Shown piece by piece: positions 22,095 through 46,011 of a stretch of 64,000 bases of DNA. Under the pieces are notes generated by a model. It had not been told where the DNA came from, ran no database searches, and worked only from the letters and a program-made list of their open reading frames with translations. The position numbers and the translations under genes were made by a program. Source of the DNA: Myxococcales bacterium (GTDB lineage: Bacteria; Desulfobacterota; Binatia; HRBIN30); the NCBI GenBank assembly GCA_037445065.1, contig JBBILD010000004.1, forward strand, positions 168,692 to 232,691, written 5' to 3'. Position 1 is the stretch's first letter. Every line of letters starts with the position of its first letter.

Positions 22095-23303
22095 TTAATG
22101 CGGGTAGAGCAGAACGGATGCGCGTTCTTGCTCCCACCTTTGCTCGTCGGGCTGCGCAAGCGCGTCGAGATCGTGTGGGGTAGAAGCTGGGTCATCCACC
22201 CAGGCGCGAACCTCCTCTCCGCCATGGATCAGGTCGATGGCCAGCCGCTCGTATTCGTACTCGTAGGGAAACTGGCGCCAGAGCGGATCGTGTGGGCGCA
22301 GGGAACGCAGGGCTTTGAGTAACAGGCAAACCAGCCGCCAAGGGCGGAAGCGCTCCGGATCGTACCAGGGTTCGTCTGTGTGAATGTGGATTCCCGCACA
22401 AAGGAGCCCGCTGTGCTTGTGAAAGGTAGGGCGAAAGTAACAGGGGCGAAGACGACACCCAGCAAGCCAAGCTGGAGCGAGCCGTTCCATGGTGGCTAAG
22501 AGCTGCGGAACATCGAGTTCGGGAGCCCCGATGACTTCCAGCGGGCGAGTTGTACCGCGGCCTTCCGAGAGCACGGTTCCCTCGATCAGTACCGTTCCCG
22601 GGTAGCAGCGCGCCATCCACAGGTTGGGCGCGTTTGGGCTCGGGTTTACCCAGCTTCGGTCTCCTAACGGCCAACCGTACCCGGGACCCCGCTGTGGCTC
22701 CCACCCGCGCATGGGTACGACGTGGTAGTCGAGATCGAGTCGCAGGGTTCGGACGAACCACAGGCCCAATTCGCCGATGGTCAGCCCGTGTCGCAGAGGA
22801 AAATTGCCGGCCGCCACGAAACTCTCCCACCCGTCTTGCACGCCAGGTCCCTCGACGGTGCGTCCGATGGGGTTGGGGCGATCCAACACCCATACGCGCT
22901 TGCCCGCTCGGGCAGCTTCCTCCAGCACGTACCGTAAGGTGGTGACAAAGGTGTACACACGGCAGCCGAGGTCCTGCAGGTCCACCAACAACGTATCGAA
23001 ACTGTCCAGCATCTCGGTCGTGGGACGGCGCGTCTTGCCGTACAAACTGAACACCGGGATGCGGTGCACCGGATCGAGGTAGTCGTCGGATTCTTCCATG
23101 TTGTCTTGTTTGTCCCCCCGCAGGCCGTGTTGGGGTCCGAAGGCCGCGGTCAAGCGAACGTTTGGTGAAGCGGCAAGAGCATCGAGGGTGTGCACCATCG
23201 TTTTGGTCAGCGAAGCTGGGTGGGCGAGGAGAGCAACGCGCTGCCCCGAAAGGCGCCGCTGCAAGGTGCGATCGGCGAGCAGGTGGTCAATCCCGAACTC
23301 CAT
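22095..23303 (-). CDS. namZ: DUF1343 / exo-beta-N-acetylmuramidase NamZ family
   Basis: FGPQHGLRG, DLQDLGCRVYTF, LDRPNP, PSPN, SEGRGTTRP; no signal peptide. Confidence 0.88.
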   Translation of the reverse strand: MEFGIDHLLADRTLQRRLSGQRVALLAHPASLTKTMVHTLDALAASPNVRLTAAFGPQHGLRGDKQDNMEESDDYLDPVHRIPVFSLYGKTRRPTTEMLDSFDTLLVDLQDLGCRVYTFVTTLRYVLEEAARAGKRVWVLDRPNPIGRTVEGPGVQDGWESFVAAGNFPLRHGLTIGELGLWFVRTLRLDLDYHVVPMRGWEPQRGPGYGWPLGDRSWVNPSPNAPNLWMARCYPGTVLIEGTVLSEGRGTTRPLEVIGAPELDVPQLLATMERLAPAWLAGCRLRPCYFRPTFHKHSGLLCAGIHIHTDEPWYDPERFRPWRLVCLLLKALRSLRPHDPLWRQFPYEYEYERLAIDLIHGGEEVRAWVDDPASTPHDLDALAQPDEQRWEQERASVLLYPH

Positions 23304-23348
23304 GCCCGCTCTTTACCGGAGAGGGCAGGGAGAAAAAACCGCCGCGGC

Positions 23349-24291
23349 TCACAATTGCCGCCGAGTTTGCTCTGCTGAGCCGGAGGGGAACCAGGCCGGC
23401 AAGGCCGGGAGTCGAGAGACAGTGCGGAGCAGGCTCTCGTGCGTCCCGCAATCGGTCCAGCCAAGTTCCGGTAGCCGCCACACGGCCAACTGCGAGGTCG
23501 CTTGCGCGAGCAGCTCGCGCGAGAAGTTCCAGGCTGGGATTGCGCCAAAATCCTCTGGCCCCGGCCTTGATCCGGTGCAGAGTGGGCGCAAGGCGCTGAA
23601 ACGGTGCGGCAAGAGGCGCTCTGTCAGGTTCAGCCGGGTTGTGAGCCGAAAGACGAGCACAAACGAGTTCCAGAGCGCCCCGCTTTCGATGAGTTGGACG
23701 CTCTGTTGGGCGGAGGGCTTCTCCGCGAACTGACGAACGCGAAAAACGGGGGCATCCGGGTCCCGCTGCCGGAACTTGCGGCCGGGAAGCACATACCCGA
23801 GTTCGGTGTCGGGGCGGTCGGGGACGACCCCGAATAGGAGCAGGAACCGCGGGTGCCGCTCGACGAACCGAGCTGCCAGGTCGAGTTGCTGTGCAAAGCC
23901 AGTGTCGTCGCTTACGTAATGGTCGCTCGGAAACAGGCCGATCGTTGTATCTCCCACGGTCTTCTTCAAGTGCAGGAGAGGGAGGAGAATGCCGGGCCCG
24001 GTGTCGCGGTTCACCGGCTGGACGAAGATGTGTGCGGGAGAGACCGGGGCCAGTTGCTCTTCTGCCCACTTGAGGTGGTGCTGGGTGATCACCACCACGG
24101 TTTGTTTCGGGGGGCGCAAAGAGGCGGATGCGGTCGAGAGTCATCTCGAGCAAGGAACGGCTTCCCAATAGGTGGCAGTACTGTTTCGGAACTGGCTCCC
24201 CGGTGATGCCTTTGGTCAACTCCTGCAAACGGGTTCCGTCGCCGCCAGCGAGCACAATTGCCCAGCGGCCTTGGTTGCGACTCACTGCCAT
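23349..24291 (-). pseudogene. Sugar-phosphate nucleotidyltransferase (mannose-1-P guanylyltransferase-like), frameshifted near 24109-24114
   Basis: N-part AIVLAGGDGTRL...PKQY in ORF 23287..24516; C-part QPVNRDTGPG, FPSDH, FAEKP, WNSF, GWTDCG in ORF 23349..24119; removing one base at the C6 run joins them. Confidence 0.8.
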
Positions 24292-24684
24292 CCATACTTC
24301 TCCTTTGGCTGCTTGCCCCGCCCCCGCCGCATCCCCGCTCTGCCGCTTATGCACAGCCGATGCCGAAGCAGCCGACGATTGGTTTCTGCTGTAGGGGCCG
24401 CTGCCTTTTCGCAGCGATCGCCAACTGGCGTTGACGGAGTCGCGCGTGTGCGAATCGGCGTGGTTGACAATTTGGTTGCTCGGTGCCAAGCCGGGGGACC
24501 GTAGGCACTGCTGCATGCTCCGCGATCAAGCCGCCTCAGTAAATGTTTCGAGATTGGCTCAGCCATCCGGGCGGGCCGCTCCGGTGTGCCTTCGAGGGCC
24601 GATTTTGACGACTCTCCTGGCTGCGGAGATACCCCTGGTGGCCGCGCCCTTGGCTTTTCGCAGTGAAGCCCTTTAGGAGGGGGA

Positions 24685-25455
24685 ATGAAGTCGAACTTCC
24701 TCGAGTCCTTGCGCGATCCGAACCGCTCGCGGAAACCGCGTGAGGTCGGCCTGACGCACGTGTTGGACAAAGGGCTTTCCCTGGCCGAGGTGCGAGGGAT
24801 GTTAGAGGTGGCAGCCAGCTACATTGACATTGTGAAGCTGGGGTGGGGCACCGCGGTGGTGATCGAGAACTTTGCCGAGAAACTCGAACTGTATCGGGAA
24901 GCAGGCGTCGAGGTGTGTTGTGGAGGAAGCCTCTTCGAGGTGGCGTTCAGTCGCAACCGGTTCGAAGAGTACGTCGCCTTCCTGCGTGATCAGGGATTCC
25001 GGCTGGTCGAAATTTCCGACGGCGTGATCGAGATTCCTGCGAAGCAAAAGCTTGGGATCATCGAAAAACTCGCCAAAGACTTCCGGGTGCTGTCGGAAGT
25101 GGGCAGTAAGGACGCAAATGTGGTGGTGGCTCCTTACCGGTGGGTGCAGCAAATCCGCGCCGAGTTGGAAGCCGGCGCGTGGAAAGTGGTCACCGAGGGC
25201 CGGGAGTCAGGCACGGTCGGCTTGTACCGCCAAAGCGGCGAGATTCGCACCGGTCTGATCGAGGAGATGGAGGTTCAGATTGACACCTCCCGCTTGATCT
25301 TCGAAGCGCCCCAGAAAGCGCAGCAGGTGTGGCTGGTCAAGCACTTCGGCTGCAACGTGAACTTAGGGAATATCGCCCCGCAAGAGGTCATCTCGTTGGA
25401 GACCATCCGGCAGGGTTTGCGCGCGGACACGATGAGTCCCAACGTCGCGTCGTGA
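24685..25455 (+). CDS. comA: Phosphosulfolactate synthase (ComA family)
   Basis: KPREVGLTHVLDKG, IVKLGWGT, GGSLFE, EISDG, SEVGSKD, TEGRESG, IFEAP, NVNLGNI, LETIRQGLRADT. Confidence 0.93.
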   Translation: MKSNFLESLRDPNRSRKPREVGLTHVLDKGLSLAEVRGMLEVAASYIDIVKLGWGTAVVIENFAEKLELYREAGVEVCCGGSLFEVAFSRNRFEEYVAFLRDQGFRLVEISDGVIEIPAKQKLGIIEKLAKDFRVLSEVGSKDANVVVAPYRWVQQIRAELEAGAWKVVTEGRESGTVGLYRQSGEIRTGLIEEMEVQIDTSRLIFEAPQKAQQVWLVKHFGCNVNLGNIAPQEVISLETIRQGLRADTMSPNVAS

Positions 25456-25542
25456 GATGGTGGCGCGCGCTCTCCCGTGCCGTTTTGCATGCGAGCCGGA
25501 TTTCGTCCGCCGCCTCGCTGTGGTTCCTGGTCCCCTCAGCGC

Positions 25543-26604
25543 TCAAGTTTGCGGCCCGGGACCTGCACTTGGCGCTTCCATGCCTCCACTCCGATAAGCA
25601 CGCCAGCGAAACTGCAACGCGCGCCAAGGCTGGATGGCAGCGGCATACAGGCGGCGAGCCACGCGAGTGAGTGCGTTGCCGTGCCGGTACACGTACGTGT
25701 AAGGGCGCTCGATCGTGCCGAAGGTTTGCTTGAAGCGCGCCACACCCGGAATCCCGGCGCCAACCATGTCGTACTCCTGTAACCCCCGCGCAGCAGCCCA
25801 GCGGATGACTTCCCAGTGCAGTAAATTGTTAGGACGTAGGCTTTGCGCAGCTCGGTCACTGACCCCGTCCAGATAATACACGGTGCGGGAGTCGAAGGGA
25901 AAAATCCCCGCCGCCACCACCTGCCCCCGGTGGAGAGCCGCCAGAACTCGTGCATTCGCACCCGCTTCGATGGCGCGGTCCATCCTGAGGTAATCCTCTT
26001 TGCGGAGGGGCGGTGCCCGGTGATGGCGGGCGAACACCATCTGCGCGAGTTCGTAGTAGCGATCGGCGACTTCGGCAAGGCGCACTTCCTGTATCGTGAC
26101 TCCTTCTCGTTCTGCTTTGCGGACTGCCCGCCGGCACGCCGGGTCCAAGGCCCGTTGCCATAACTCCCGCTCCCCAGGGCGGAGGTCGAGCACATGGGTG
26201 GCTCGTCCTTCCCGTTCGAACCCGGCTGGCTCCCATACCTGCGCCGGAAGGTCGGCGGCGATCCGCAGCTCGAGGTAGGCGACACCCTGAGCTTTGGCAA
26301 AGTGAGCCAGAGCGGTGAACACTTCGGGCAACAGTTCGGACGGTACCACCGGGCCCAGATAGGGCGTCGCCGCAAGCGGCGGCGGGGATGCAAGAATGCG
26401 AAGCGGGCCACGCCGGAGCTGGAATAGGGGAAGCAGGCCAAGCATGTGCCCATTGTCTTCGATGCGGGTAGGCCGAAACGTGGCACGCGCCAGATCAGCG
26501 ATCAGATCCAGCCAAACTCGTCGGTGAAACACGCTTGCCGGACCAAGCTGGCAAAGCATCGCATCCCAGTCTTCTCCCGAATCTACCTCCACGACTTGCA
26601 GCAT
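25543..26604 (-). CDS. GNAT/FemAB-like (BcsL/CelD-type) N-acyltransferase
   Basis: SVFHRRVW, RRAVRKA, PNNLLHWEVIRWA..G...YDMVG, ARFKQTFG; start MLQVV. Confidence 0.85.
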   Translation of the reverse strand: MLQVVEVDSGEDWDAMLCQLGPASVFHRRVWLDLIADLARATFRPTRIEDNGHMLGLLPLFQLRRGPLRILASPPPLAATPYLGPVVPSELLPEVFTALAHFAKAQGVAYLELRIAADLPAQVWEPAGFEREGRATHVLDLRPGERELWQRALDPACRRAVRKAEREGVTIQEVRLAEVADRYYELAQMVFARHHRAPPLRKEDYLRMDRAIEAGANARVLAALHRGQVVAAGIFPFDSRTVYYLDGVSDRAAQSLRPNNLLHWEVIRWAAARGLQEYDMVGAGIPGVARFKQTFGTIERPYTYVYRHGNALTRVARRLYAAAIQPWRALQFRWRAYRSGGMEAPSAGPGPQT

Positions 26605-27018
26605 AATCCGACGCCAGGCTCGAGAACGCCTGCACCCTAGCCCGCACAAGCATTGGCGCCAAGCACGGCGGGGCAACAGGTTCGCGCCCAGCGGGCTGGC
26701 GTACATCGCATGCAGCCTTGCCTGAAAGACACCCTGTGCAGATTCCGCGGCAGCAGCACGGAGAGCCCCTTGCTTCTTGCCGGCACTGCGACGCTCTTCT
26801 TCTCCCAAGGGCCTGCATGGTCAACCGTGGCCCGCTTGCGTGTTTTATAAGCTAGTGACGGGACGGGTTTCGCGCCTGACCTTGGGACGCGCGCAGCCGG
26901 ATCTTCATCGCCAAAGGCGCCGTAACTGGTGCCGCCGGGAGCGGCGTTTCCTTCGGCCCGTAGCGGTCCCCTGCTTCATCGTCGTGCCCGCTCGAGATCC
27001 TGCGTGTGGCCGGTCAGG

Positions 27019-29316
27019 TTAGGGCTCGCAGACCAAGATGGAGTGCCACCATTTGCACGAGCCTGCCGAGCCCAGGCGGTCGATGGCCGAACCCATGTGG
27101 GTCCAAGTCACGGTGACCGGACCGGAAGAAATCGCAGCGAAGGTGCGTCCGCGGCACTGCAGACGCCAGGAGTAGCTTCCCGACACCCCGCGCGCGGGGC
27201 GCACGACCACTTCGCGCATGCGGTCGGTGCTGACACAGCGGACTCCACCCCGGCGCAGGGGTGCGCACTCGCCCGGGATCCAATCATACGTTTCCGCGAG
27301 CGACCCACTATCCTCAACCCGAATCCGCAGCCCGGCGGACACATCCAGGGCGGCGGGGTCCAGCGCCACGTATTGACCTCGGGCGCGCACGCGGCCATTG
27401 TCGGTGGCAAGGCTCGTGTCGGGGCGGAGGGAGACCCGATTTACCGTCAAGGGTGCGTCGCTGGCGTCGCAAACATCCCCTGCACCGTCCGAGTCGAGAT
27501 CCTCTTGAGCGGGATTGGCGATGGTCGGACAGTTGTCAGACACATCTGGCACACCATCGCCGTCCGCATCTACAGGTGCGGAGGATGTCGGGGTAAGGCT
27601 CGCTGCCGGCGTGTTCGAGGGAGGAGGACTCGTAGCGGTCCTTGTCGCCGTGGCGGTGAAAGAGGAAGTGGGTGAGAAGCTTGGCGCTGGGGGAAGCACG
27701 GTGGGCGTGAATGTGGGCGAAGGGGTGAGGGACCACGTAGCGGTCCGTGTCAGCGTCGGCGTTGCGGTAGGGCCGCCCACCTGAATCGTGGCACCGCTGC
27801 GGTTGCAGGGAAACAAGCCCCCTCCGTCCCTCTGCAATTCACAAGCGGGCACACCGCTCGAACCGCAGAACACGGTGGCGAACTCGAGTGAGGTGACTCC
27901 GCTACCCGCGCCTTGGAACTGGATGGTGGCCAGGTCTGGGTTGTTGGCCGGGAATTGGTGATTCGGGCAACTGATCGCGATACAGATCTTGCCTGCATCC
28001 GCCCCGTTCGCTTGCGCCATGCACCAGGGGGGTGTGTTCATCGTCAGGCCCTGCAACGAGAGGACGTTGGGGTCGTACGTGAGTCCAAATGTATAGTAAA
28101 TGATCTCGTTGGTGTCGTTGATGTGAAGTTGGACGGAGATGTTCTCGCCCGGGGCGATGGAAGCACTCGCCGGAACCAGGCTCACAGAGCGAGCGGGTAA
28201 TGGCGTCGGTGTTGCGCAAGTGTTTGCGTGGCTGCACACTCCGGTTTCCAACTGGCAGGTGTCTGTGGTGCAGTCGAGGCGGTCATCGCAGTCCGCATCT
28301 GCCGTGCAAAACGGCTTGATGAACTGTCCGAGGCTCCACGGCGAGGCGCCGACGGGGATCGTTGCGATCACTGTGGCAGTTTGAACGTCAACCACGGACA
28401 CGGTGTCGCTCCCCGTGTTTGCGACGTAGACGCGACGCCCATCTGGGTGGGCGGCGACGCCGCGCGGCTGGAGTCCCACGAGCACAGTCCCCACTACCGT
28501 ATCTGAGGCGATGTCGATGATCGAGAGCGTGCCAGAACCGGTATTCGTCACGTACAACTGGGTGGAGTCGGGACTCACCGCGACCCCGTACGGCTGGGTG
28601 CCCACGGGAATCGACTTGAGATACGGGTACGGGTAGCGAGTTGGGTCCCAGGACCGAACTGCATCCGCACCTTCGTCCGCAAAGTAAACCTGGCGATGAC
28701 CGCCGCCCGGGCCGCCGGTGACAGCGATCCCGTTCGGTGAAGTTCCCGGAGCCACCATGTTCCACTGCAAGTCCGGCGGAGGGGCAATCTCAGCGTAGCC
28801 AGGTCCATTTGCACCGCTCCCCCCGGGGCCGGCATGCACGGAGACGTAGACGTTCCCCTCCGCGTCGGCCACCACACCGAGCGGGACGCTGGCAAAGTAC
28901 CCGATTCCGGCAAGGAAGCTCAGCCCCACGGCGTTGTACGCGAAAACCGTGTCGCTCGTCCGGTTGGTCACGTAAAAGTATGCGCCATCTGGGCTCACTG
29001 CTACGCCGAAAGCACCACTTCCGACCGCAGTTCCTGAAAGCGGGGTGGAAACGCTCAGCGAGGTGAGGTCTACGACCGATATGGACTGGCTTCCCGAATT
29101 GACGACATAGCCCTTCGTTCCACTGGGATCGACGGCAACGCCCGTTGGCGCGGCCTGAACGTTTACGGTTGCGATCACTTGATCGGTCGCCGTGTCGATT
29201 ACGCTGACCGTATTGTCCCCGGAGTTGGTAATCAAAGCGCGCGGAGCCGCGAGTGCGTTGCCGCTAAAACAACAAAAACACACCAGCCCGACCCAATGTC
29301 GCGAAGCCCGTTTCAT
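27019..29316 (-). CDS. Secreted multidomain protein: YVTN beta-propeller, Cys-rich repeat, cohesin-like domain, Pro/Thr linker, TSP3 Ca-binding repeat, C-terminal domain
   Basis: Signal peptide; repeated YVTN..S.TVSVID; CTADADCDDRLDCTTDTC; LTYDPNVL...LATIQF; TATPT repeats; DADGDGVPDVSDNCPTIANPAQEDLDSDGAGDVCD. Confidence 0.85.
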   Translation of the reverse strand: MKRASRHWVGLVCFCCFSGNALAAPRALITNSGDNTVSVIDTATDQVIATVNVQAAPTGVAVDPSGTKGYVVNSGSQSISVVDLTSLSVSTPLSGTAVGSGAFGVAVSPDGAYFYVTNRTSDTVFAYNAVGLSFLAGIGYFASVPLGVVADAEGNVYVSVHAGPGGSGANGPGYAEIAPPPDLQWNMVAPGTSPNGIAVTGGPGGGHRQVYFADEGADAVRSWDPTRYPYPYLKSIPVGTQPYGVAVSPDSTQLYVTNTGSGTLSIIDIASDTVVGTVLVGLQPRGVAAHPDGRRVYVANTGSDTVSVVDVQTATVIATIPVGASPWSLGQFIKPFCTADADCDDRLDCTTDTCQLETGVCSHANTCATPTPLPARSVSLVPASASIAPGENISVQLHINDTNEIIYYTFGLTYDPNVLSLQGLTMNTPPWCMAQANGADAGKICIAISCPNHQFPANNPDLATIQFQGAGSGVTSLEFATVFCGSSGVPACELQRDGGGLFPCNRSGATIQVGGPTATPTLTRTATWSLTPSPTFTPTVLPPAPSFSPTSSFTATATRTATSPPPSNTPAASLTPTSSAPVDADGDGVPDVSDNCPTIANPAQEDLDSDGAGDVCDASDAPLTVNRVSLRPDTSLATDNGRVRARGQYVALDPAALDVSAGLRIRVEDSGSLAETYDWIPGECAPLRRGGVRCVSTDRMREVVVRPARGVSGSYSWRLQCRGRTFAAISSGPVTVTWTHMGSAIDRLGSAGSCKWWHSILVCEP

Positions 29317-29758
29317 GTCCCCTCCCTTGTGAAAGTTTCTGGTAAGCGACGCTAAAAAGCAAGCTTTTATTGCGAGGGCTCGTTCGCGGAGGGTGGTGTG
29401 AGTGCCCAGGAGGCCGCAGGTGCGAAGTCACCGCGGCCCGCACGCTGGGAACTCCTCGAGGTTTGCGGGCATACAACGACTCTCGAGCGCGTGTTCCGAT
29501 GCCGACGTGGATGGCCTCGACCCACCTCCGTAGCCGCCCTGTGCGTGTGATCGAGAGCGGCCGGCCAAAACCGTTCGCTCATTACGGATGAGGGACATGG
29601 GTGCGCCGGGACCACCGCAGGGAAACGGCCTGGGGTAGGGGTTGGAGGTGGACGCTGGTACGGAGGCTGTGCGGCGGGGGAGTATGGGAGCGCGCGCGGT
29701 TGACCAGAGGGGAAGCCTGCGTTGCAAACGTTGCGCATCGAGATTAGCTAGCCGGCGC

Positions 29759-30496
29759 ATGGCTACCGGCTTATCGCGAGCGCGCCTTTACCTCGTAGGT
29801 CGCCTGGCTGCGATTCCGCGCGATCACTTCCTGAAGCGTTTGGCCCGCTCGCTTGGGGTTGGGCGTTGGCTGGGCTTGTCCGACAAGTACTATTCGGAGC
29901 TTTCGTGGCAAAATCGCTGGGCCCCGGTCTTCGCCAAAAACCGCGAGAAAGTACGCGAGTACTGGCAGAAGTACCGATACTTCGATGAGATCCTGGCCAT
30001 GGTCTCGTTAGACGAGCACAGTAGGGTGCTCGACGTAGGCTGTGGCATCAGCACCGTGCTGCATTTCTTGCCTGGCCAGCGCTTTGGGATCGATCCACTC
30101 GCCGACGAGTACAAGCGGATCTATTCGTACCCTGCAGGCATCGAAGTGCGCCAGGGCTACGGCGAGCAGATTCCCTTCCCCGACCAGTGGTTCGACGCTG
30201 TCTTTTGCTCCAATGTGCTGGATCACACCTCGGAGCCAGACCGGGTGCTGGCGGAGATCCGCCGGGCGCTGCGCCCGGCAGGGTTTCTGGTCCTCACCGT
30301 GGAAGTGTTCCCGCACGCGCAAGAGCGCGATTTGTCGCACCCGCATGCGTTTACCCGCGAGGAAGTGTTGGACAAACTCTCTGCGTTCCAGGTTCTGTTC
30401 CAGCGGGAAAGCCCGTGGATCATGCTCATGCATTACGTTGACGGTTCGATGCGCGTCGAAGGAGAGCAGCTCATCCTGGTGGCGCGGAAGAAGTGA
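29759..30496 (+). CDS. Class I SAM-dependent methyltransferase
   Basis: VLDVGCG, GIDP, GEQIPFPDQWFDAV.C.NVLDH, RALRPAG. Confidence 0.9.
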   Translation: MATGLSRARLYLVGRLAAIPRDHFLKRLARSLGVGRWLGLSDKYYSELSWQNRWAPVFAKNREKVREYWQKYRYFDEILAMVSLDEHSRVLDVGCGISTVLHFLPGQRFGIDPLADEYKRIYSYPAGIEVRQGYGEQIPFPDQWFDAVFCSNVLDHTSEPDRVLAEIRRALRPAGFLVLTVEVFPHAQERDLSHPHAFTREEVLDKLSAFQVLFQRESPWIMLMHYVDGSMRVEGEQLILVARKK

Positions 30497-31536
30497 TGCG
30501 CAGACCTGTGCGCGTGCTCGTGCTGAACCAGGAAGCGCATCGGGAACTCCTCGTGCGTTCCTGTGCGAATCTGCCAGTGGAACTCGTGTTGCATGACTTC
30601 CCGGTTCCGTGGGCCGAAGTCGCAGCGCGGCGAGCTGGCAATTGGCAGGACGTGCCGGAGCCTCTGCCTACAGAGGCCCTGCGCAGTGAGTTGGCGCGGG
30701 CCGAGGTGCTGTTCGCATTCGCGCCCCCGCGCCGCACGGCTGAGCTTGCCCCGCACCTGCGCTGGGTCGAAACCCCAGCCACTGGCTACGACCAGTTGAA
30801 CGGCACCGGCGTCTTGGAGGCTCCGGGGGTGCGCGTGACCACGGTGGGCGGTCTGTTCGCCGCGTCGGTTGCGGAGCACGCGTGGGCGCTCATCCTTGCC
30901 CTGTTGCGGCGCTTACCTTTGTTTCTGGAAGCACAACGGGGGAGGCGCTGGGAGCAGGCTCCGGTGGGGGAGCTACGCGGGCGTACCCTCGGCATCGTGG
31001 GCTACGGGAACATCGGCCGCGCAGTGGCGCGGATGGCGAGGGGTTTCGGGATGCGGGTTCTGGCGACCCGCTCCTCGCGCCCAGGTGAGGAAGAGAATGT
31101 GGATGAGTTTTTTGCCCGCCACGACCTGCACGTGTTGCTGGCGCGCAGCGACATCGTCGTGGTTACGGTTCGCGGCGAGCCGGCCAACGATGCTTTGTTC
31201 GGGGCGCGGGAGTTCGCTGTCATGCGCGACGGGGCGTGGTTTATCAACGTGGCGCGCGGCTCGGTGGTTGACGAGCAGGCCCTGTGTGAGGCGTTGCGCT
31301 CTGGGAAGCTCGCTGGGGCAGGTCTCGACGTGTTTCGTAAAGAACCTTTGCCGGCGGACCACCGCTTGTGGGCCATGCCGAATGTGGTCCTCACGCCTCA
31401 TGTCGCCATGCATGTGCCCGACCGTATGGAACGGTGCGTTCAGCACTTCTGCCAAAACCTGCGCCGTTACTGCGCGGCGGAGCCACTGCTCGACGAGGTG
31501 CCGTTCACGCAGCGGACAGTAGAGGCAAAGCTGTGA
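30493..31536 (+). CDS. D-2-hydroxyacid dehydrogenase (NAD-dependent)
   Basis: GIVGYGNIG, INVARG, LDVFRKEPL, LTPHVA; GTGA overlap with the methyltransferase. Confidence 0.93.
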   Translation: MMRRPVRVLVLNQEAHRELLVRSCANLPVELVLHDFPVPWAEVAARRAGNWQDVPEPLPTEALRSELARAEVLFAFAPPRRTAELAPHLRWVETPATGYDQLNGTGVLEAPGVRVTTVGGLFAASVAEHAWALILALLRRLPLFLEAQRGRRWEQAPVGELRGRTLGIVGYGNIGRAVARMARGFGMRVLATRSSRPGEEENVDEFFARHDLHVLLARSDIVVVTVRGEPANDALFGAREFAVMRDGAWFINVARGSVVDEQALCEALRSGKLAGAGLDVFRKEPLPADHRLWAMPNVVLTPHVAMHVPDRMERCVQHFCQNLRRYCAAEPLLDEVPFTQRTVEAKL

Positions 31537-32248
31537 GTTGGGTGACCTCCCGGATCACCCACTTGGCCGGCGGGCGCTCCGTCTCGCCGGCAGCCGTGTG
31601 AATCCACACTGCGTCCATACCAGCCCCAGTGGCCCCCAGCACGTCTTCCTCCCAACTATCGCCGACGAATAAGGCGTGGCTGGCGCCAACGCCAGTTGCA
31701 GCGAGGGCTTGGTGGAAGATTTCTGCCCGAGGCTTCCGCCAGCCGGCTTCCGCGGAAACCACGACGGCAGAAAAAAAACGCGTGAGGCCGGAACGTTCGA
31801 GCAGTTGTCGAACGGCAAGCGGGTCGTCGAAGTTGGACACCACTGCAAGCCGGAAGCGCGCTGCCAGGCTCTTCACGAGCTGCGGGACGCTCGGGTATGG
31901 CTGGCAGTTCTGGACCACGTGCTGGCGGTGAACCGCAGCCACGATTCGACCGCATCGAGCAATGTCGGACTGCGAGTAACCGAGACGGCTCAGCGCTGCA
32001 GCCAATCGTTCCTCCAGGCGGCGTTCGCGGCAGCTAGCGACCGCTTCCCGCCGGAAAGCTCGGGTGACTTCTTCGAATGCAGTGAGGAATGCGTCGCGGT
32101 CGAGTTCCGGCAAGGAAGGAGCCACATCCGCTAGCACCGCTTCCACAGCAGGCCGCCAACCCGGTTCGTCGGCCCGCATCATCGGTGCGGCAGGGCCGAC
32201 TTCGAACAAAGTACGAAAACAATCGAACAGAATCGCTTGGTAGCCCAT
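31505..32248 (-). CDS. HAD-superfamily hydrolase/phosphatase
   Basis: ILFDCFRTL, VVSN, WRKP, VGDSWEEDV.GA..AGM. Confidence 0.88.
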   Translation of the reverse strand: MGYQAILFDCFRTLFEVGPAAPMMRADEPGWRPAVEAVLADVAPSLPELDRDAFLTAFEEVTRAFRREAVASCRERRLEERLAAALSRLGYSQSDIARCGRIVAAVHRQHVVQNCQPYPSVPQLVKSLAARFRLAVVSNFDDPLAVRQLLERSGLTRFFSAVVVSAEAGWRKPRAEIFHQALAATGVGASHALFVGDSWEEDVLGATGAGMDAVWIHTAAGETERPPAKWVIREVTQLTALPLLSAA

Positions 32249-32397
32249 CGCTCTGAACACCCTTCCGGCGAAGGCAGGCTCTGTAGCGAGTCGCGGGCGA
32301 CAAGGCGAGGCAAACGATGCGCGCGGCAGGGGGTAGGCAAGCCTGCTTGCCCTGTCGTTGCGATCAGGGAAGAAATGCACGACAACCAACGACAACC

Positions 32398-33594
32398 ATG
32401 GGACGAATGCTTCGCAATCCGGCAGTGGTCCTGAACTGCGAGACCGGTGGGATCGGTATCCTGCACTCCCTGGCTGGCAGCGGGATCGATATTGTCACGG
32501 TGGAGCGCGACTGGCCGCCCGCTTTCGGCCGTTGGTCGCGTTACCCGAAGCTGCGCCTCACCTACCGGCCGTGGCGGGGGGAGTCGTTGGTGGATGCTCT
32601 GCTCCGCTTGCGCGGTTCGTTCGAGGGCCGCGGTGTGCTGTTTCCGAGCACCGATGCCGACTTGGCGGTCCTCATCGAGCATCGCTCTCAGCTCGAGCCG
32701 GCGTATCACATCCCAGCGGCGGAACCCATCGGCATGCGGATCTTCGAGAAGAACTGGCAGTACGAGCTGGCCGAGCAGGTTGGAGTCCCGATGCCCCGGC
32801 ACGTTCGCTTCAGGGCCGGCGAGTTTCCGAAGGTGCAAGGACTGCGCTTTCCCCTCGTCGTCAAACCATCGGCGCGTGCGAGCGGGGCGCGGGCAAAGAC
32901 GTTCCGATTGAAAGTTTGCCGCGATGAGCAGGAGCTGGGCCACACTTTGCGCGAGCTCGCGCGCGAGCACGAGGGGCGTGCCTTCCAGGTGAGCGAAAAT
33001 ATCCCGGGAGAGCCAACCCGGTTGGTCACTGTGGGATCGTACAGCGACCGCAGCGGCAAGGTCCTACGGTCGTTCATCGGGCGCAAGGTCACGCAGTTTC
33101 CGTACTATTACGGCGAGGCTAGCGTGGCTGAAGCCCTGAGTCCGATTCCTGAAGTGTTAGATAGCGCGCGGCGACTGTTGGAGGCCGCGGGGTTTCACGG
33201 GATTAGTCAAGTCGAGTTCAAGTACGACGAGCGGGACAGTACCTACAAGCTGATCGAAATCAATCCCCGTTCGTGGTCGTGGATCAAGCTGGCGACGCGT
33301 GCTGGGGTCAACTTGCCCTTGATCCAGTATTGGGACCTCGTCGGCGACGCGCGACTGCAGGAGGCGCTCGCCCAACCGCAAGAGGATCGATGGTTTTTCG
33401 TGTACTACTTTTACGTGCGCCGCAACCGCCTAGAGAGCGAACGCCGCCAGATCGCGGAACTGGCGCGCAGGAAAACCATGGTACCCGCAGTGGACGATGA
33501 CGGGGAGCGCTGGCTACCGTTCGTGCATCGCGCTGTCTCTTTGGTCAAACTGTTGCGGCGGCACCGTGCCTCGATCTCGGCTCCCACGCCGTAA
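32398..33594 (+). CDS. ATP-grasp carboxylate-amine ligase (D-aspartate ligase-like)
   Basis: LFPSTD, FPLVVKP, SENIPG, GRKVTQFP..YG, GISQVEFKYDERD..YKLIEINPR.W.W, GVNLP. Confidence 0.85.
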   Translation: MGRMLRNPAVVLNCETGGIGILHSLAGSGIDIVTVERDWPPAFGRWSRYPKLRLTYRPWRGESLVDALLRLRGSFEGRGVLFPSTDADLAVLIEHRSQLEPAYHIPAAEPIGMRIFEKNWQYELAEQVGVPMPRHVRFRAGEFPKVQGLRFPLVVKPSARASGARAKTFRLKVCRDEQELGHTLRELAREHEGRAFQVSENIPGEPTRLVTVGSYSDRSGKVLRSFIGRKVTQFPYYYGEASVAEALSPIPEVLDSARRLLEAAGFHGISQVEFKYDERDSTYKLIEINPRSWSWIKLATRAGVNLPLIQYWDLVGDARLQEALAQPQEDRWFFVYYFYVRRNRLESERRQIAELARRKTMVPAVDDDGERWLPFVHRAVSLVKLLRRHRASISAPTP

Positions 33595-33771
33595 ATGGGG
33601 CTAGGCCTCGGCGTGTACGCCCTCCTTGGTCGCCACCCGGAATGGACTGCGCGCGGCCTTCCACAAAACAACCAGCGCCGTAGAAGAGCGATCCTGCCGG
33701 TCGGTGCGAGCAGGAGGCGGCGCTGCACGTCCCCTTGCGTGGCTGTAGGCATACCGGTAGCAACTTGGCCT

Positions 33772-34653
33772 ATGTCGCAGAAAGATGGATTTCAGCGTTT
33801 CCACGGAACCCCGGGCTACATTGCTTCGCCTGCGTTGGTGGATGCGGTCAATTGCGCAATTGCCTTGGAACGCCCTCTGTTGATCAAAGGGGAGCCGGGA
33901 ACCGGTAAGACGATTTTGGCTCGCCACGTAGCCGAGGGGCTGGGGCTGAAGATGCTTGCCTGGCATATCAAGTCGACTTCGAAGGCGGCGGAGGGCCTGT
34001 ACGTGTACGACACGGTGCAGCGGTTGAATGACAGCCGGTTCGGTACCGGCGATGTTTCCGATATCCGCCGCTACATCAAGCTGGGTCCGCTCGGGCAGGC
34101 GTTTGCGTCGCCCGATCGGGTGGTGCTGCTGATTGACGAAATTGACAAAGCCGATCTCGAGTTCCCGAATGATTTGCTGCGCGAACTCGACGAGATGCGG
34201 TTCACGATCATCGAGACCGGCGAGGAAATCGTGGCCCGCTACCGGCCGATCGTGATCATCACCTCGAACAACGAGAAGGAATTGCCGGATGCGTTTTTGC
34301 GCCGCTGCATTTTCTATTACATTGATTTCCCCACTCCCGAACTCATGCGCCGCATCGTGGCGGTCCACCACCCTCATCTCGACGCCAAATTGCTGGACCA
34401 GGTGCTGATCAAGTTTTACTGGCTGCGCGAGCAAAGCGAGCTGCGCAAAAAGCCCTCGACCTCGGAGCTGATCGATTGGATCACCGCCTTGGTGCGAGCA
34501 GGGGTGAGCCTGGAGACGGTGGAACAACACATCCCGTTTGTCGGGGCACTGCTCAAGAAGGAGCAGGACGTGGACGCCCTGCTCCGCTACGACGCGGCCG
34601 GTGGCCGCTTCCCGAAGAGCTGGGCGGAACTCGGCCCGCGCTATCAGCAGTAG
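33772..34653 (+). CDS. MoxR-family AAA+ ATPase
   Basis: GEPGTGKT, LLIDEIDKAD, ITSNNEKELPDAFLRRC, KKPSTSELIDW. Confidence 0.93.
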   Translation: MSQKDGFQRFHGTPGYIASPALVDAVNCAIALERPLLIKGEPGTGKTILARHVAEGLGLKMLAWHIKSTSKAAEGLYVYDTVQRLNDSRFGTGDVSDIRRYIKLGPLGQAFASPDRVVLLIDEIDKADLEFPNDLLRELDEMRFTIIETGEEIVARYRPIVIITSNNEKELPDAFLRRCIFYYIDFPTPELMRRIVAVHHPHLDAKLLDQVLIKFYWLREQSELRKKPSTSELIDWITALVRAGVSLETVEQHIPFVGALLKKEQDVDALLRYDAAGGRFPKSWAELGPRYQQ

Positions 34654-34685
34654 GCCCGGGGGGAGTCTGCGAGCGAGGCAAAAGG

Positions 34686-35891
34686 ATGTTCCTGGATTTC
34701 TTTTACGGGCTGCGCGAAGAAGGCGTACCGGTAGGCATTCAGGAGTGGCTGACCTTCATGCGCGCACTCGAGCTCGGCCTGCACCACTCCAGCTTGCTCG
34801 GCTTTTATCACTTGGGTCGCGCTTGCTTGGTCAAGAGCGAGACCTTCTTCGATGCCTACGACCGGGTCTTCTTGCGTGTCTTCCGCGGTGTGGAGGGCGC
34901 CGTGAGCGAGGAGACCGTGGAGAAGGTCCTTGAATGGCTGCGCGATCCCAAGAATTTCCCCCACCTCTCCCCAGAGGAGTTGGCGCAACTGGAACGGCTC
35001 AATCATGATGAACTCATGCGCCGCCTCCTCGACACGCTGGCAAAACAGAGCGAGCGCCACGACGGCGGCGACCGGTGGATCGGCACGGGTGGCAAATCCC
35101 CGTTTGGGCACAGCGGGCAGCACCCGACCGGGATCCGCGTCGGCGGCCCTGCGCGTGGCCGCTCAGCCATGAAAGTGGCAGAGGAACGGCGCTTTCGCGA
35201 TTACCGCACCGACCTCACGTTGGACGTGCGCCAACTGCGCGTGGCCCTGCGCCGCTTGCGCCAGCTCACCCGCTCGGGTGAGGCAACCGAACTGGATCTC
35301 GACGAGACTGTGGACGAAACCTGCCGCAACGCGGGGGAAATCGAACTGGTGTTCCGTCCACCGCGGCGCAACGATGTGCGCTTGCTCTTGCTCATGGACG
35401 TCGGTGGCACGATGGACCCGTATTACGAGCCGGTAAGCCAGCTTCTCACTGCCCTCCACGAAGAGCGGGGCCTGCGTGCCTTCGAAGCGTACTACTTCCA
35501 CAACTGTATTTACGATCACGTTTACAACAAAGCCCGCATGTTCCGCTCCGATGCAGTGCCGACCGGCGATTTGTTGCGCCGCCTCGATCGGCGCTGGAAA
35601 GTGGTGATCGTCGGTGATGCCTCGATGCACCCGGCGGAACTGCTGGAGCCTTTCGGGAACATTGACCCGCGCCGCGTCTCCCCGACGCCAGGCATCGTGT
35701 GGCTGCAACGCATCGCCAACCATTTCGAACGGAGCGTTTGGCTCAATCCAGAAAAACCCGCTTACTGGGAGGCAGATACGTGCCGTGTGATCCGCCGCTT
35801 GTTCCCCATGTTTCACTTGAGCATTGACGGCATGAGCGAGGCCGTACGTACCTTGGTCGGGGCACGGCCCGCCGTGCAGGAAAGGAGGTAG
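34686..35891 (+). CDS. VWA-domain protein (CoxE-like MoxR partner)
   Basis: WIGTGGKSPFG, ELDLDETV, MIDAS-like DVGGTM, YFHNC, VGDASM, VWLNP. Confidence 0.9.
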   Translation: MFLDFFYGLREEGVPVGIQEWLTFMRALELGLHHSSLLGFYHLGRACLVKSETFFDAYDRVFLRVFRGVEGAVSEETVEKVLEWLRDPKNFPHLSPEELAQLERLNHDELMRRLLDTLAKQSERHDGGDRWIGTGGKSPFGHSGQHPTGIRVGGPARGRSAMKVAEERRFRDYRTDLTLDVRQLRVALRRLRQLTRSGEATELDLDETVDETCRNAGEIELVFRPPRRNDVRLLLLMDVGGTMDPYYEPVSQLLTALHEERGLRAFEAYYFHNCIYDHVYNKARMFRSDAVPTGDLLRRLDRRWKVVIVGDASMHPAELLEPFGNIDPRRVSPTPGIVWLQRIANHFERSVWLNPEKPAYWEADTCRVIRRLFPMFHLSIDGMSEAVRTLVGARPAVQERR

Positions 35892-35895
35892 GGAG

Positions 35896-36534
35896 ATGAA
35901 ACTTTGGAGCGAGAGTTTCCCGGACCGCGGTCGCATCCCGGAACGCTGCGCTTTCGGCAAGTACGATCCTCGAGCGCACGTGGCGTTGAGCGAGAATCTC
36001 AATCCCCACTTGGCGTGGGCGGATTTGCCTGCGGGCACGCGCTCGCTGGTGCTGATCTGTCACGACTCCGACGTGCCCAGCCGCGCTGACGACGTCAACC
36101 AGGAAGGGCGGGTGGTGCCGGCTTCCCTGCCGCGAGTGGATTTCTTCCACTGGGTGTTGGTGGACCTGCCGCCCGATGGGCCGCCGATTTCCGAGGGAGA
36201 GTTTTCGCGCGGCGTCACACCTCGAGGCAAGCCGGGCCCGGAGGGTCCGCGCGGCACGCGACAGGGGCTTAATAATTACACGGATTGGTTTGCATCTGAC
36301 CCGGATATGAAGGGCGATTACTTCGGTTACGACGGTCCCTGCCCGCCGTGGAACGATGAAATCGTGCATCATTACCACTTCACGCTCTACGCTGTGGACC
36401 TGGCGCGATGCCCGTTGGAGGGGCGCTTTGGCGGGCCGCAAGTGATCGAGGCGCTCAAGGGACACGTGCTTGCGCAAGCGCGCATCACCGGGCTTTACGC
36501 AATCAACCCACAGGCCCGCGAGGTGCAAGTCTGA
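35896..36534 (+). CDS. YbhB/YbcL (PEBP/RKIP-like) protein
   Basis: NPHLAW, CHDSD, FFHWVL, YDGPCPPWND..HHYHF. Confidence 0.93.
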   Translation: MKLWSESFPDRGRIPERCAFGKYDPRAHVALSENLNPHLAWADLPAGTRSLVLICHDSDVPSRADDVNQEGRVVPASLPRVDFFHWVLVDLPPDGPPISEGEFSRGVTPRGKPGPEGPRGTRQGLNNYTDWFASDPDMKGDYFGYDGPCPPWNDEIVHHYHFTLYAVDLARCPLEGRFGGPQVIEALKGHVLAQARITGLYAINPQAREVQV

Positions 36535-41501: not shown

Positions 41502-42227
41502 ATGCCGCAAAACGTTCCTGAGTTCGGCTTCAGCGAGGATGCTTTGCGCTTGCGGCAGTTCGTGTACGAGTACTGGTGCGAACACGGGCACGGGCCGAAC
41601 TTGCGGACGGCACACGAAGGCACCGGCTTGAGCCGCGAGCGGCTGCTGGCCGCGTATCAGGAACTCGATCTGGGAATCATGTGTGTGGTGAATCTCGACA
41701 CGCAGAATTTCCATTTGCTCAAAGCCCCTCCCTTTTCGAGTTACCCGAGCCAGGCGCAGGTGTATTTGGACGGTCGCTTCCACTGCTACGCCGGCTGCGC
41801 CATGGAGTCGCTGGCCATCTCCATGATGCCTCCGTTTCAAGGCAAGGAAGTTCGTATCGAATCGTACTGCGCGTGTTGTTTGCGGCCCGTGCAGGTGGTG
41901 ACGCGCAGTGGAGAGTTGCTGTCCTACACGCCGGCAACGGCGCTCGTGCACGTCAGCTCGAGCCCGTGGGAATGGAACCGGACCAGCATTGTTTCCATGT
42001 GCGACACGATGAATTTCGTTCTCGACCGCGAGCACGCGGCACAGTACGAGCGCAAGATTTGCCGCCGCGGCGTGCTGTTCACGATGGAACAGGCGCACGC
42101 CTTCGTCACCCCCACTGGGCGAGCGCGGATGTGGAACTATGAACGGCCTCCGGACTACTTGCGGCCACCGAAGGTGATCGATTTTGTGCGTTCCTTGGGC
42201 GTGGACGTGAGTGGCTGGGGCGCGTGA
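41502..42227 (+). CDS. Organomercurial lyase (MerB)-like protein
   Basis: N-terminal winged-HTH-like region, PPFS, YAGCAMESL (cf. YAWCALDTL), IESYCACC, MCDTMNF. Confidence 0.75.
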   Translation: MPQNVPEFGFSEDALRLRQFVYEYWCEHGHGPNLRTAHEGTGLSRERLLAAYQELDLGIMCVVNLDTQNFHLLKAPPFSSYPSQAQVYLDGRFHCYAGCAMESLAISMMPPFQGKEVRIESYCACCLRPVQVVTRSGELLSYTPATALVHVSSSPWEWNRTSIVSMCDTMNFVLDREHAAQYERKICRRGVLFTMEQAHAFVTPTGRARMWNYERPPDYLRPPKVIDFVRSLGVDVSGWGA

Positions 42228-42258
42228 CCGGCGGTAAAGCGGACTTGGGGAGAGGCGG

Positions 42259-43719
42259 ATGGCAAGTGCCTGGTGCGAGAAGCTCTCCGCGCAAGACCGC
42301 TCGTTCCTGCTGTTCGAACGCCGCACCACGCACATGCACTTGGGGGGTGTTACGGTTTTCGAGTTGGGCCCGCTCAGGAACGAGCACGGTGGGGTACGGA
42401 TGGAGCAGATCCGTGCCTACATTGCTTCGCGCTTGCATTGGATTCCGCGTTACCGGCAACGGCTCGCGTTCCGCCCCCTGGATGGGGCCCCATTTTGGGT
42501 GGACGACGAGCGGTTCCACCTCGACTATCATGTGCGGCACACCAGCTTGCCGCGGCCTGGTGATGATCGCCAGTTGAAACAGCTGGCCGGGCGTATCCTG
42601 TCCACGCCGCTCGATCGGTCTCGCCCGCTGTGGGAAGCGTGGGTGGTCGAGGGTCTGGCCGGAGATCGCTTTGCCATGGTGCTCAAGACCCATCACGCGG
42701 TGGTAGATGGAGTTTCCGGGGTGGACCTGATGTCCACGCTGCTGCAGCCGGAGCCGGTCAGCCACGTAGAGCCCTCCCCGCCCTGGCGTCCCCGTCCGGC
42801 GCCGAGCGTCTGGCGGATGTGGGAAGAAGAGATCGAGAAGCAATGGGAGCTGCCCGCGAGAGTGTGGGCCGAGCTGCGCGGCGCACTGGAGCAGCCGGGT
42901 GCATTGTGGCAGCGCTTGCAAGACAGCCTGCGCACGACGTGGGGCTTCTTCAGCGAAGGTCTGCACCGTCCCTCGCCGACTCCGCTGAACCGAGCAATTG
43001 GCCCGTATCGGCGGTTCGATTGGCAAGAGCTGGCGTTGAGCGAGGCCAAAGAGATCAAGAACCGTCTCGGAGGAACGGTCAATGACGTTGTGCTCGCCAC
43101 CGTGGCCGGTGCAGTGCGCCGATTTTTGCTGCGCCGCGCCGCCCTTGCGGAAGAGTTGGACTTCCGCATCGTCGTGCCGGTGAGCATTCGCAGCCCGCAG
43201 GAGGCGGCGCAGCCGGGTAACCGAGTGTCGGCGTGGATCCTCTCGTTGCCGGTGCGCGAACGCGATCCTGAAGTCCGCTACCGAGCGGTGGTCGAAGCCA
43301 CCACTCGCTGCAAGAGTTCCCATTTGGAGCGAGGCATCGAAGCGTTCACCACGCTGGCGGAGGTGATGGATCCGCTGCTCACGCTCGGCGTTCGGGTTGC
43401 GGCGCGCGTGGCACCGTACAACTTGATCGTCACCAATGTCCCTGGGCCGCAGTTTCCTTTGTTCTTGCTCAACGCGCGCATGCTCGCCGGGTACCCCACG
43501 GTGCCGCTGTTCGAGTACCAAGGGCTCGGGGTGGCCATCTTCAGTTACGACGGGCGACTGTTTTTCGGGCTGAACGCGGATTGGGACATTTTGCCTGACG
43601 TCGCCGATTTTGCTGCGGACCTGCGCGGTGCCTTTGTGGAACTCTCGCGGGCCGCCCGCGGGTGGAGCCCGGCGGCGCGGCCGGCGCAACGAGTTCGCAG
43701 CTCGGCGCGCAGGCATTGA
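42259..43719 (+). CDS. Wax ester synthase/diacylglycerol acyltransferase (WS/DGAT)
   Basis: LSAQD..FL..E, PLDRSRPLWE, catalytic HHAVVDG, TVNDVVLA, TNVPGP. Confidence 0.95.
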   Translation: MASAWCEKLSAQDRSFLLFERRTTHMHLGGVTVFELGPLRNEHGGVRMEQIRAYIASRLHWIPRYRQRLAFRPLDGAPFWVDDERFHLDYHVRHTSLPRPGDDRQLKQLAGRILSTPLDRSRPLWEAWVVEGLAGDRFAMVLKTHHAVVDGVSGVDLMSTLLQPEPVSHVEPSPPWRPRPAPSVWRMWEEEIEKQWELPARVWAELRGALEQPGALWQRLQDSLRTTWGFFSEGLHRPSPTPLNRAIGPYRRFDWQELALSEAKEIKNRLGGTVNDVVLATVAGAVRRFLLRRAALAEELDFRIVVPVSIRSPQEAAQPGNRVSAWILSLPVRERDPEVRYRAVVEATTRCKSSHLERGIEAFTTLAEVMDPLLTLGVRVAARVAPYNLIVTNVPGPQFPLFLLNARMLAGYPTVPLFEYQGLGVAIFSYDGRLFFGLNADWDILPDVADFAADLRGAFVELSRAARGWSPAARPAQRVRSSARRH

Positions 43720-43737
43720 GAACAGGGAGGGAGATGC

Positions 43738-45875: not shown

Positions 45876-46011
45876 GCCTCTCTTTCTGCAGTTAGACCAG
45901 AGACAACTGGCAAAGGGCAGTGGTGGTGGGGCTGGCTACTGGCTGGATCCTTGGGGTCGCCGTTGGCTGGCAAGCGCTGGGTGAGCGGGGAGACCGCGCA
46001 GCGGGGAGAGC

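Follow-up and report, generated by a model that had tools for sequence, protein, structure and literature searches.

The known carbon-bonded sulfonates of bacteria are mainly coenzyme M, sulfolipids, sulfoquinovose and the sulfolactate of spores, and the synthesis of sulfolactate by YitD/YitC in Bacillus subtilis uses ComA-type chemistry. ComA is the first enzyme in both of the known coenzyme M pathways, and XcbC converts phosphosulfolactate to sulfoacrylic acid by phosphate elimination (both according to PMC9457059). In the 64,000-nucleotide stretch of contig JBBILD010000004.1 (Binatia) analyzed here, hereafter called the window, a ComA gene lies near the genes for an ATP-grasp ligase, a HAD-family hydrolase and a D-isomer-specific 2-hydroxyacid dehydrogenase. 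We put at about 0.5 the probability that the window carries a rearranged form of a Binatia-like module that makes a C3 sulfonic acid and links it through an amide bond, probably to an amino sugar of the exopolysaccharide encoded on contig C5 of the same genome. A first-pass annotation, made from the sequence of the window, had proposed a sulfonate synthesis-and-ligation system of this kind; the linkage of four of its genes and the absence of comB, comC and comD have been upheld, and a surface glycan as target is backed by a relative, whereas its view of the hydrolase and dehydrogenase as plain replacements for ComB and ComC, and its inclusion of a FemAB-family transferase, have not.

The class was sampled with 201 genomes, of which 40 (including the unpublished G177) have a ComA orthologue, distributed patchily by family. 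Up to 20 kb round ComA was taken from 37 of the ComA-positive genomes (without G177), and with the locus of a named Binatia metagenome-assembled genome (L004) and the window itself, 39 loci from related, Binatia-like genomes were compared. They were searched by tblastn with the window proteins and with proteins chosen from the relatives, and representative loci were annotated with Pfam and NCBIfam. In 36 of the 39 loci, ComA has an ATP-grasp gene no more than about 5 kb away, and the other three are cut by contig ends; the enzyme is of the close type in 13 loci, of a second type in 18 and of a third type in five. A candidate phosphate-removing partner was found beside ComA in 37 of the 39 loci by tblastn, namely an XcbC-like lyase (26 loci), ComB (five) or the pair of HAD and dehydrogenase (seven), with one locus harboring both the lyase and the pair. 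The two loci with nothing beside ComA are accounted for by the position of ComA at a contig end.

Four layouts, apparently interchangeable, exist side by side in this one bacterial class. Type A (eight loci) consists of a lyase of the aspartase/fumarase superfamily, a 399-aa flavoprotein resembling NadB and fumarate reductase, ComA, and an ATP-grasp with 48–58% identity to that of the window. In type B (seven loci: the window, L041, L061, L062, L063, L077 and L045), the HAD and a D-2-hydroxyacid dehydrogenase (51–56% identity to that of the window) adjoin ComA and the same ATP-grasp; one of these, L045 of genome G195, holds the type A genes as well. The commonest type B layout has the dehydrogenase and HAD divergent from ComA and the ATP-grasp, and G041 and G156 have an unbroken series of methyltransferase, dehydrogenase, HAD, ATP-grasp and ComA. 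Type C (18 loci, family f9) is a three-gene operon of a distant ATP-grasp (25–33% identity), the lyase and ComA, and type D (five loci, family f12: L049–L052 and L064) comprises ComA, a canonical ComB (PF04029, E-value = 3 × 10-40), a GT4 glycosyltransferase and the third, distant ATP-grasp. The type D GT4 gives weak MshA/BshA-like matches and thus recalls the logic of mycothiol and bacillithiol synthesis, with sulfolactate replacing malate or inositol. Signs of decay or poor assembly were noticed in L044 of G023, where a TAA splits the ATP-grasp and no more than a quarter of the lyase is matched, and in L077 of G148, where an in-frame TGA occurs in ComA and the ATP-grasp falls into two pieces. 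Because the clustering of ComA, ATP-grasp, HAD and dehydrogenase recurs in the relatives, it goes beyond chance, and the linkage of these four genes suspected in the first-pass annotation is conserved.

The closest bond is that between ComA and the ligase. The close ATP-grasp orthologue is present in 12 of the 201 genomes, all of them ComA-positive; at the level of the order, 12 of the 14 ComA-positive genomes have it and none of the 12 ComA-negative ones does, and both of the ComA-positive genomes lacking it are assemblies of about 1200 contigs. It adjoins ComA, or lies within about 5 kb of it, in 13 of the 14 type A/B loci. In five ComA loci from outside Binatia (L006–L010), no ATP-grasp was matched by the window query in tblastn. 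The window ligase gave 32.6 bits with PF15632 (cut-off, 29.1), and its AlphaFold2 model, for which 48 of the 141 homologues found were used as input, has a mean pLDDT of 93.3. A Foldseek search with this model returned at least 500 ATP-grasp chains (E-value ≤ 0.001) and so only the generic fold, with L-amino-acid ligase 3vot, biotin carboxylase, PylC and PurK at the top (TM 0.5–0.6, 13–20% identity), and the sequence search against solved structures gave nothing better than an E-value of 0.2. The names "ATP-grasp carboligase" and "D-aspartate ligase" carried by homologues (the latter given by JGI to some of them) are automatic labels. By analogy with other members of the fold, the ligase would form an acyl-phosphate on a carboxylate, which would then be attacked by an amine.

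ComA itself matched PF02679 with 298 bits over profile positions 2–243 of 243 and could be aligned from end to end with the phosphosulfolactate synthases of known structure from M. jannaschii and B. subtilis (1qwg and 1u83; E-value about 4 × 10-51). Its score with the NCBIfam equivalog TIGR03849 is 265 bits, below the cut-off of 280, so that the same function is likely but not certified. The assembly that contains the window (3.79 Mb in 46 contigs, 97.7% complete) offers none of the canonical enzymes that would follow: in the window and in the whole assembly, profile searches gave no match for ComB (PF04029; as a positive control, found in seven of 14 known genomes), ComC (Ldh_2, PF02615) or ComD (the alpha subunit of sulfopyruvate decarboxylase, TIGR03845), which extends to the genome what the first-pass annotation had said of comB, comC and comDE in the window. 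Neither an XcbC-like lyase nor XcbD was found in this genome, the best scores being 205 bits with the XcbC model, which is the level of ArgH, and 69 bits with the XcbD model. A second, distant ComA paralogue (27% identical to the window ComA) is located at 88509–89366 of contig C10 (9929–10789 of locus L003), directly 3' of a gene of the MmgE/PrpD family that follows leucine-catabolism genes. In SAR11, ComA homologues flank a TTT-transporter paralogue, and prpD/prpF lie beside other TTT paralogues, according to PMC11796062.

The lyase of the relatives scored 502 and 522 bits with the NCBIfam XcbC model (cut-off, 575) and 279–288 bits with argH. Among 72,556 plasmids, its best match was Xaut_4873 on pXAUT01 of Xanthobacter autotrophicus Py2 (41.8% identity over 91%, E-value = 2 × 10-86), a gene that comes right after that of the phosphosulfolactate synthase. 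The relatives thus seem to have taken over the opening two reactions of coenzyme M synthesis in bacteria, with the ligase, and not XcbD and XcbE, coming next.

The module would work as follows, with ComA and the ATP-grasp ligase as its core. ComA, to judge from its homology, would add sulfite to phosphoenolpyruvate to give (2R)-phosphosulfolactate; removal of the phosphate would then leave a C3 sulfonic acid, which the ATP-grasp would activate and whose carboxyl it would join to an amine as an amide. Removal of the phosphate may be achieved by an XcbC-like lyase to give sulfoacrylate, usually with the flavoprotein resembling fumarate reductase and NadB, or by canonical ComB to give sulfolactate; in the window, the step would fall to the HAD and the D-2-hydroxyacid dehydrogenase, joined in its family by a methyltransferase. 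As the acceptor, an amino sugar in the exopolysaccharide that the Wzx/Wzy cluster of C5 produces is the most likely, and the product would be a carbon-sulfonated surface glycan rather than coenzyme M.

Several observations weigh against this proposal, most of them concerning the HAD and the dehydrogenase. The HAD begins with MGYQAILFDCFRTL, so that its motif I reads D-x-F (FDCFRT) and lacks the second Asp of D-x-D; motifs II (VVSN), III (RKP) and IV (GDSWEED) are present and normal. The second Asp of motif I is the general acid-base of HAD phosphatases (PMC12715507). D-x-F/Y is found in nearly all of the 22 aligned HAD relatives that cover motif I, including unlinked paralogues from ComA-negative genomes, and the ComA-adjacent HAD of G195 (L045, about 10546–11277) even has Gly in place of the nucleophilic Asp; as G195 keeps the lyase and flavoprotein set, its HAD may be inactive. 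In a tree of 22 rows (seven ComA-adjacent HADs, 13 non-adjacent ones among the better-scoring matches and two paralogues from the window's own genome, with about 70 further matches left out), the ComA-adjacent HADs are not monophyletic but require four changes, with poor support. Counting HAD orthologues by identity was abandoned, because the adjacent copies (32–44%) overlap the range of the unlinked paralogues. The (2R) product of ComA is homochiral with L-malate and thus of the L-series, the substrate class of ComC. The window dehydrogenase has the GxGxxG motif and the catalytic Arg, Glu and His when aligned with 3hg7, 5tx7, 6bii, 1wwk and 5aov, and it belongs to PF02826, not to the ComC family PF02615. 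This family is D-specific, and its one member known to act on sulfolactate, SlcC of Chromohalobacter salexigens, is an (S)-sulfolactate dehydrogenase (PMC6303947, citing Denger and Cook 2010), whereas the product of ComA is of the 2R series. Five of the 12 dehydrogenase orthologues (E-value ≤ 1 × 10-70; 12 of the 201 genomes, seven beside ComA) lie away from ComA, and no HAD, ComA or ATP-grasp was seen within about 4 kb on either side of these five (less where the contig ends). Furthermore, the window ComA lies about 7 kb from the ATP-grasp on its own transcript, no glycan genes were found in the window or among the annotated type C loci (L053 and L057, of the 18 in the type), and Foldseek places the ligase in no subfamily of known substrate.

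Taken together, the D-specific family and the D-x-F motif indicate that the pair does not simply take the place of ComB and ComC; the idea that the HAD is an ordinary phosphatase is weakened by the motif, and the idea that the dehydrogenase merely substitutes for ComC by the stereochemistry. It is possible that an L-specific dehydrogenase, such as malate dehydrogenase, helps to invert the center via sulfopyruvate, or that the pair works after ligation. A bolder variant, which we regard as improbable, is that the HAD, whose motif I resembles that of 2-haloacid dehalogenases (D-x-F/Y-x-T), attacks C2 of (2R)-phosphosulfolactate and displaces the phosphate with inversion to give (S)-sulfolactate, feeding an undescribed class of carbon-sulfonated surface polysaccharides. 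An inverting HAD would thereby supply the isomer that a D-specific, SlcC-like dehydrogenase and a "D-acid" ligase need, and, if true, would represent a new reaction type for the HAD superfamily.

The doubts about the pair give rise to the strongest alternative, which is far from negligible and yet clearly less probable than the reading given at the outset: only ComA and the ATP-grasp work together, the ligase taking phosphosulfolactate itself or the product of unlinked enzymes, and the HAD, dehydrogenase, methyltransferase and FemAB protein act later on the conjugate, act elsewhere or are remnants. The ATP-grasp orthologue is about 50% identical whatever partner set accompanies ComA, and thus fits one common substrate. 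The lack of the second Asp in motif I, with the nucleophile also missing in G195, agrees with this alternative, as do the occurrence of the HAD lineages outside ComA genomes, the five dehydrogenase orthologues located away from ComA and the coexistence of the lyase set and the HAD/dehydrogenase pair in G195. On the other hand, the pair lies directly beside ComA in seven genomes of six genera and two families, and it is the sole candidate for phosphate removal in six genomes (that of the window and five others) without ComB and XcbC-like lyase; among these six, which have the HAD/dehydrogenase form only, ComB was matched in none, and the XcbC-model scores are 192–224 bits, again the level of ArgH. 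The distribution is thus complementary, in that loci with neither lyase nor ComB have the pair by ComA, and this counts against the doubts on the pair.

The link to a surface glycan, which we favor as the destination of the sulfonate, comes from two loci above all. In L047, a flippase is followed by ATP-grasp, flavoprotein, lyase and ComA, the successive gaps being 4, 5, 149 and 4 bp. An exopolysaccharide operon of G171 (L042) includes the four module genes, with a methyltransferase on one side of them and a Wzx-type flippase on the other, and also contains a DegT aminotransferase, an initiating sugar transferase, two epimerase/dehydratases, a GFO/MocA oxidoreductase, a glycosyltransferase, a carbamoyltransferase, an AlgX-like protein and a FemAB-GNAT domain. 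Eleven non-module genes of this operon match the region at 81–96 kb of C5 in the window's genome with 45–79% identity and in the same order, and the C5 cluster is adjoined by Wzy, Wzz and Wza-like genes, whereas ComA (74%), ATP-grasp (57%) and FemAB (48%) of G171 match the window rather than C5. From this synteny, we infer that the window genes serve the C5 polysaccharide, which supports the surface glycan named among the targets in the first-pass annotation. A Wzx-type flippase and a GT1 glycosyltransferase occur within 10 kb of ComA in nine of the 14 type A/B loci. A conserved 374–450-aa protein of the polysaccharide clusters (L042, 4887–6239; C5, 85183–86328) gave a single weak match, to HprK-related kinase A (E-value = 6.8 × 10-9).

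Somewhat less probable again than a ComA/ATP-grasp pair acting alone is that the product is not a decorated glycan but a soluble compound of low molecular weight, for example an osmolyte, a cofactor or a small thiol-like conjugate. The cassettes of the window, G041 and G156 stand without glycan genes alongside, the 18 type C loci are three-gene operons with variable neighbors (L053 and L057 being those annotated), and the weak MshA/BshA-like matches of the type D GT4 recall the logic of thiol cofactors. Against this stand the flippase and GT1 of the nine type A/B loci, in the same operon as the module in L047 and G171, and the colinearity of the G171 operon with the C5 polysaccharide cluster.

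The remaining alternatives are much weaker. A role of the genes in degrading sulfolactate or cysteate, for which ComA would have to work backward and set sulfite free, would find a parallel in the catabolic SlcC-type dehydrogenases (PMC6303947) and in the ComA homologues near transporters that are proposed in PMC11796062 to act on phosphosulfolactate; however, no sulfonate transporter, regulator or sulfo-lyase was seen in the window, and the ATP-consuming ligase and the placement in a polysaccharide operon speak for synthesis, so that we consider breakdown very unlikely. A new route to coenzyme M is less likely still: ComA does open both known pathways (PMC9457059), but ComB, ComC, ComD, XcbC and XcbD were not found in the genome, and the conserved partner is a ligase that neither known pathway uses. 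Chance neighborhood, the caveat attached to the first-pass annotation and suggested by the mixed strands, the intervening 765-aa protein, the separate ComA transcript and the bystander genes, may be dismissed for ComA, ATP-grasp, HAD and dehydrogenase, which occur together across genera, and holds for the bystanders only.

The features of the window are listed in the following table; all of the genes named in the first-pass annotation were recovered in the open reading frame (ORF) listing and by Pfam and NCBIfam profiles.

Table 1. Positions in the window of the putative sulfonate module and of the genes interspersed with it
Feature	Position	Strand	Basis
ComA, phosphosulfolactate synthase homologue; module core	24685-25455	+	PF02679, E-value 6.5e-89
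FemAB-family/GNAT transferase; possible, unproven member	25543-26808	-	PF13480 and PF02388
Beta-propeller/TSP3 protein of 765 aa, probably secreted	27019-29316	-	
Class I SAM (S-adenosylmethionine) methyltransferase; accessory	29642-30496	+	PF08241
D-isomer-specific 2-hydroxyacid dehydrogenase; candidate sulfolactate/sulfopyruvate oxidoreductase	30493-31536	+	PF02826, E-value 1.9e-59, 200 bits
HAD-IA hydrolase; candidate remover of phosphosulfolactate phosphate	31505-32248	-	PF13419 and PF00702
Divergent spacer between HAD and ATP-grasp, 149 bp	32249-32397	.	From start codons
ATP-grasp carboxylate-amine ligase; conserved ComA partner	32398-33594	+	398-aa form on record

The ORFs of the methyltransferase and dehydrogenase overlap by 4 bp. 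The HAD ORF extends over 31505–32395, and the ATG at 32248, read from the sequence, is its likely true start; the start of the ATP-grasp (ORF 32317–33594) was placed at 32398 because the form on record has 398 aa. The methyltransferase orthologue occurs directly 5' of the dehydrogenase in L041 and L061 (67–69% identity) and in no other ComA locus; it thus accompanies the dehydrogenase in three f1 genomes only.

The FemAB protein, which the first-pass annotation had counted with the module, is at most loosely tied to it. It scored 52.6 bits with PF02388 (cut-off, 24) and fell far below the cut-offs of the equivalog models. Its orthologue was found in seven of the 201 genomes: six in f1 (that of the window and five others), and a seventh in f5 (G019), which is a 34% match; none was found in f3, a family that has the core ComA/ATP-grasp module. 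In G041 and G156, it adjoins a P-type ATPase, with no ComA there, and in G041 PrxQ and NamZ come next; this setting is the synteny of the left flank of the window, and together with the absence from f3 it speaks against the proposed link. In the polysaccharide operon of G171, an orthologue (48% identity) comes directly after the flippase, and its place there and by ComA in the window is only suggestive of membership in the module.

Upstream of ComA, the window has NamZ, a peroxiredoxin and a nucleotidyltransferase. The 409-aa ORF at 23287–24516 is probably spurious, the coding frame there being that of the nucleotidyltransferase (23349–24119, minus strand); it was likewise excluded from the module, having no counterpart by ComA in the relatives. 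The NamZ exo-N-acetylmuramidase and then the nucleotidyltransferase occupy 22095–24119 and could be a pair for recycling cell-wall sugars; the match of the latter begins at profile position 47, which may reflect an N-terminal truncation or a frameshift. The 765-aa protein is composed of YVTN-type beta-propeller repeats, a cohesin-like domain and thrombospondin type 3 repeats and is probably secreted. An AAA ATPase (MadB-like, 123 bits), a VWA/CoxE-like protein and a PEBP/YbhB protein are encoded at 33595–36534, a set that starts one base past the stop of the ATP-grasp. The beta-propeller protein and these three genes were rejected as parts of the module, as none was ever found near ComA in the relatives by tblastn. 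Farther downstream (41502–49011) are a MerB-like protein, a wax-ester synthase/DGAT, two luciferase-like monooxygenases and a 999-aa protein with a spermine-synthase domain.

If the module functions as proposed, uncultured bacteria of soil and sediment spend sulfite on a modular system that makes and ligates a C3 sulfonate, perhaps onto their exopolysaccharide, where it would provide a permanent strong negative charge that is proof against sulfatases. The bacterial route to coenzyme M would then have lent its first two steps to another end, and phosphosulfolactate would lose its phosphate in three unrelated ways, a natural experiment in non-orthologous replacement in which the HAD/dehydrogenase form poses a clear stereochemical question. 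No description of a ComA/ATP-grasp cassette was found in the literature searched, in which few subscription journals are covered; the component families are known, and it is their combination that is absent from that literature. Particular to the window are the form with HAD and D-specific dehydrogenase, the coexistence of four interchangeable layouts in a single bacterial class and the dispersal of the module away from the glycan cluster.

Among known systems, the capsule of Campylobacter jejuni offers a case in which an ATP-grasp amidoligase and a HAD phosphatase act together on a side group of a glycan. That case involves no sulfonate. The window ligase shares its fold and ATP-grasp architecture with the L-amino-acid ligases and PylC (Foldseek E-value about 1 × 10-15, TM 0.55–0.6), but it is only 15–18% identical to them. 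The archaeal ComA-ComB-ComC-ComDE route has the ComA chemistry in common with the module, and canonical ComB is next to ComA in five related loci; it differs in that the genome of the window has a D-x-F HAD and a D-specific dehydrogenase instead of ComB, ComC and ComD, and in the stereochemistry expected for this form. SlcC, of the same D-2-hydroxyacid dehydrogenase family, acts on a C3 sulfonate and is therefore a precedent for activity on sulfolactate, but it is catabolic, and the window dehydrogenase is likened to it by family and not by direct sequence comparison. XcbABCDE of X. autotrophicus Py2 (PMC9457059) resembles the module in having a ComA homologue first, and an XcbC-like lyase is second in 26 of the 39 related loci. 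However, the genome of the window has neither this lyase nor XcbD, the thiolation enzymes are not linked to the ComA/ATP-grasp module, and the partner conserved with ComA is the ATP-grasp ligase.

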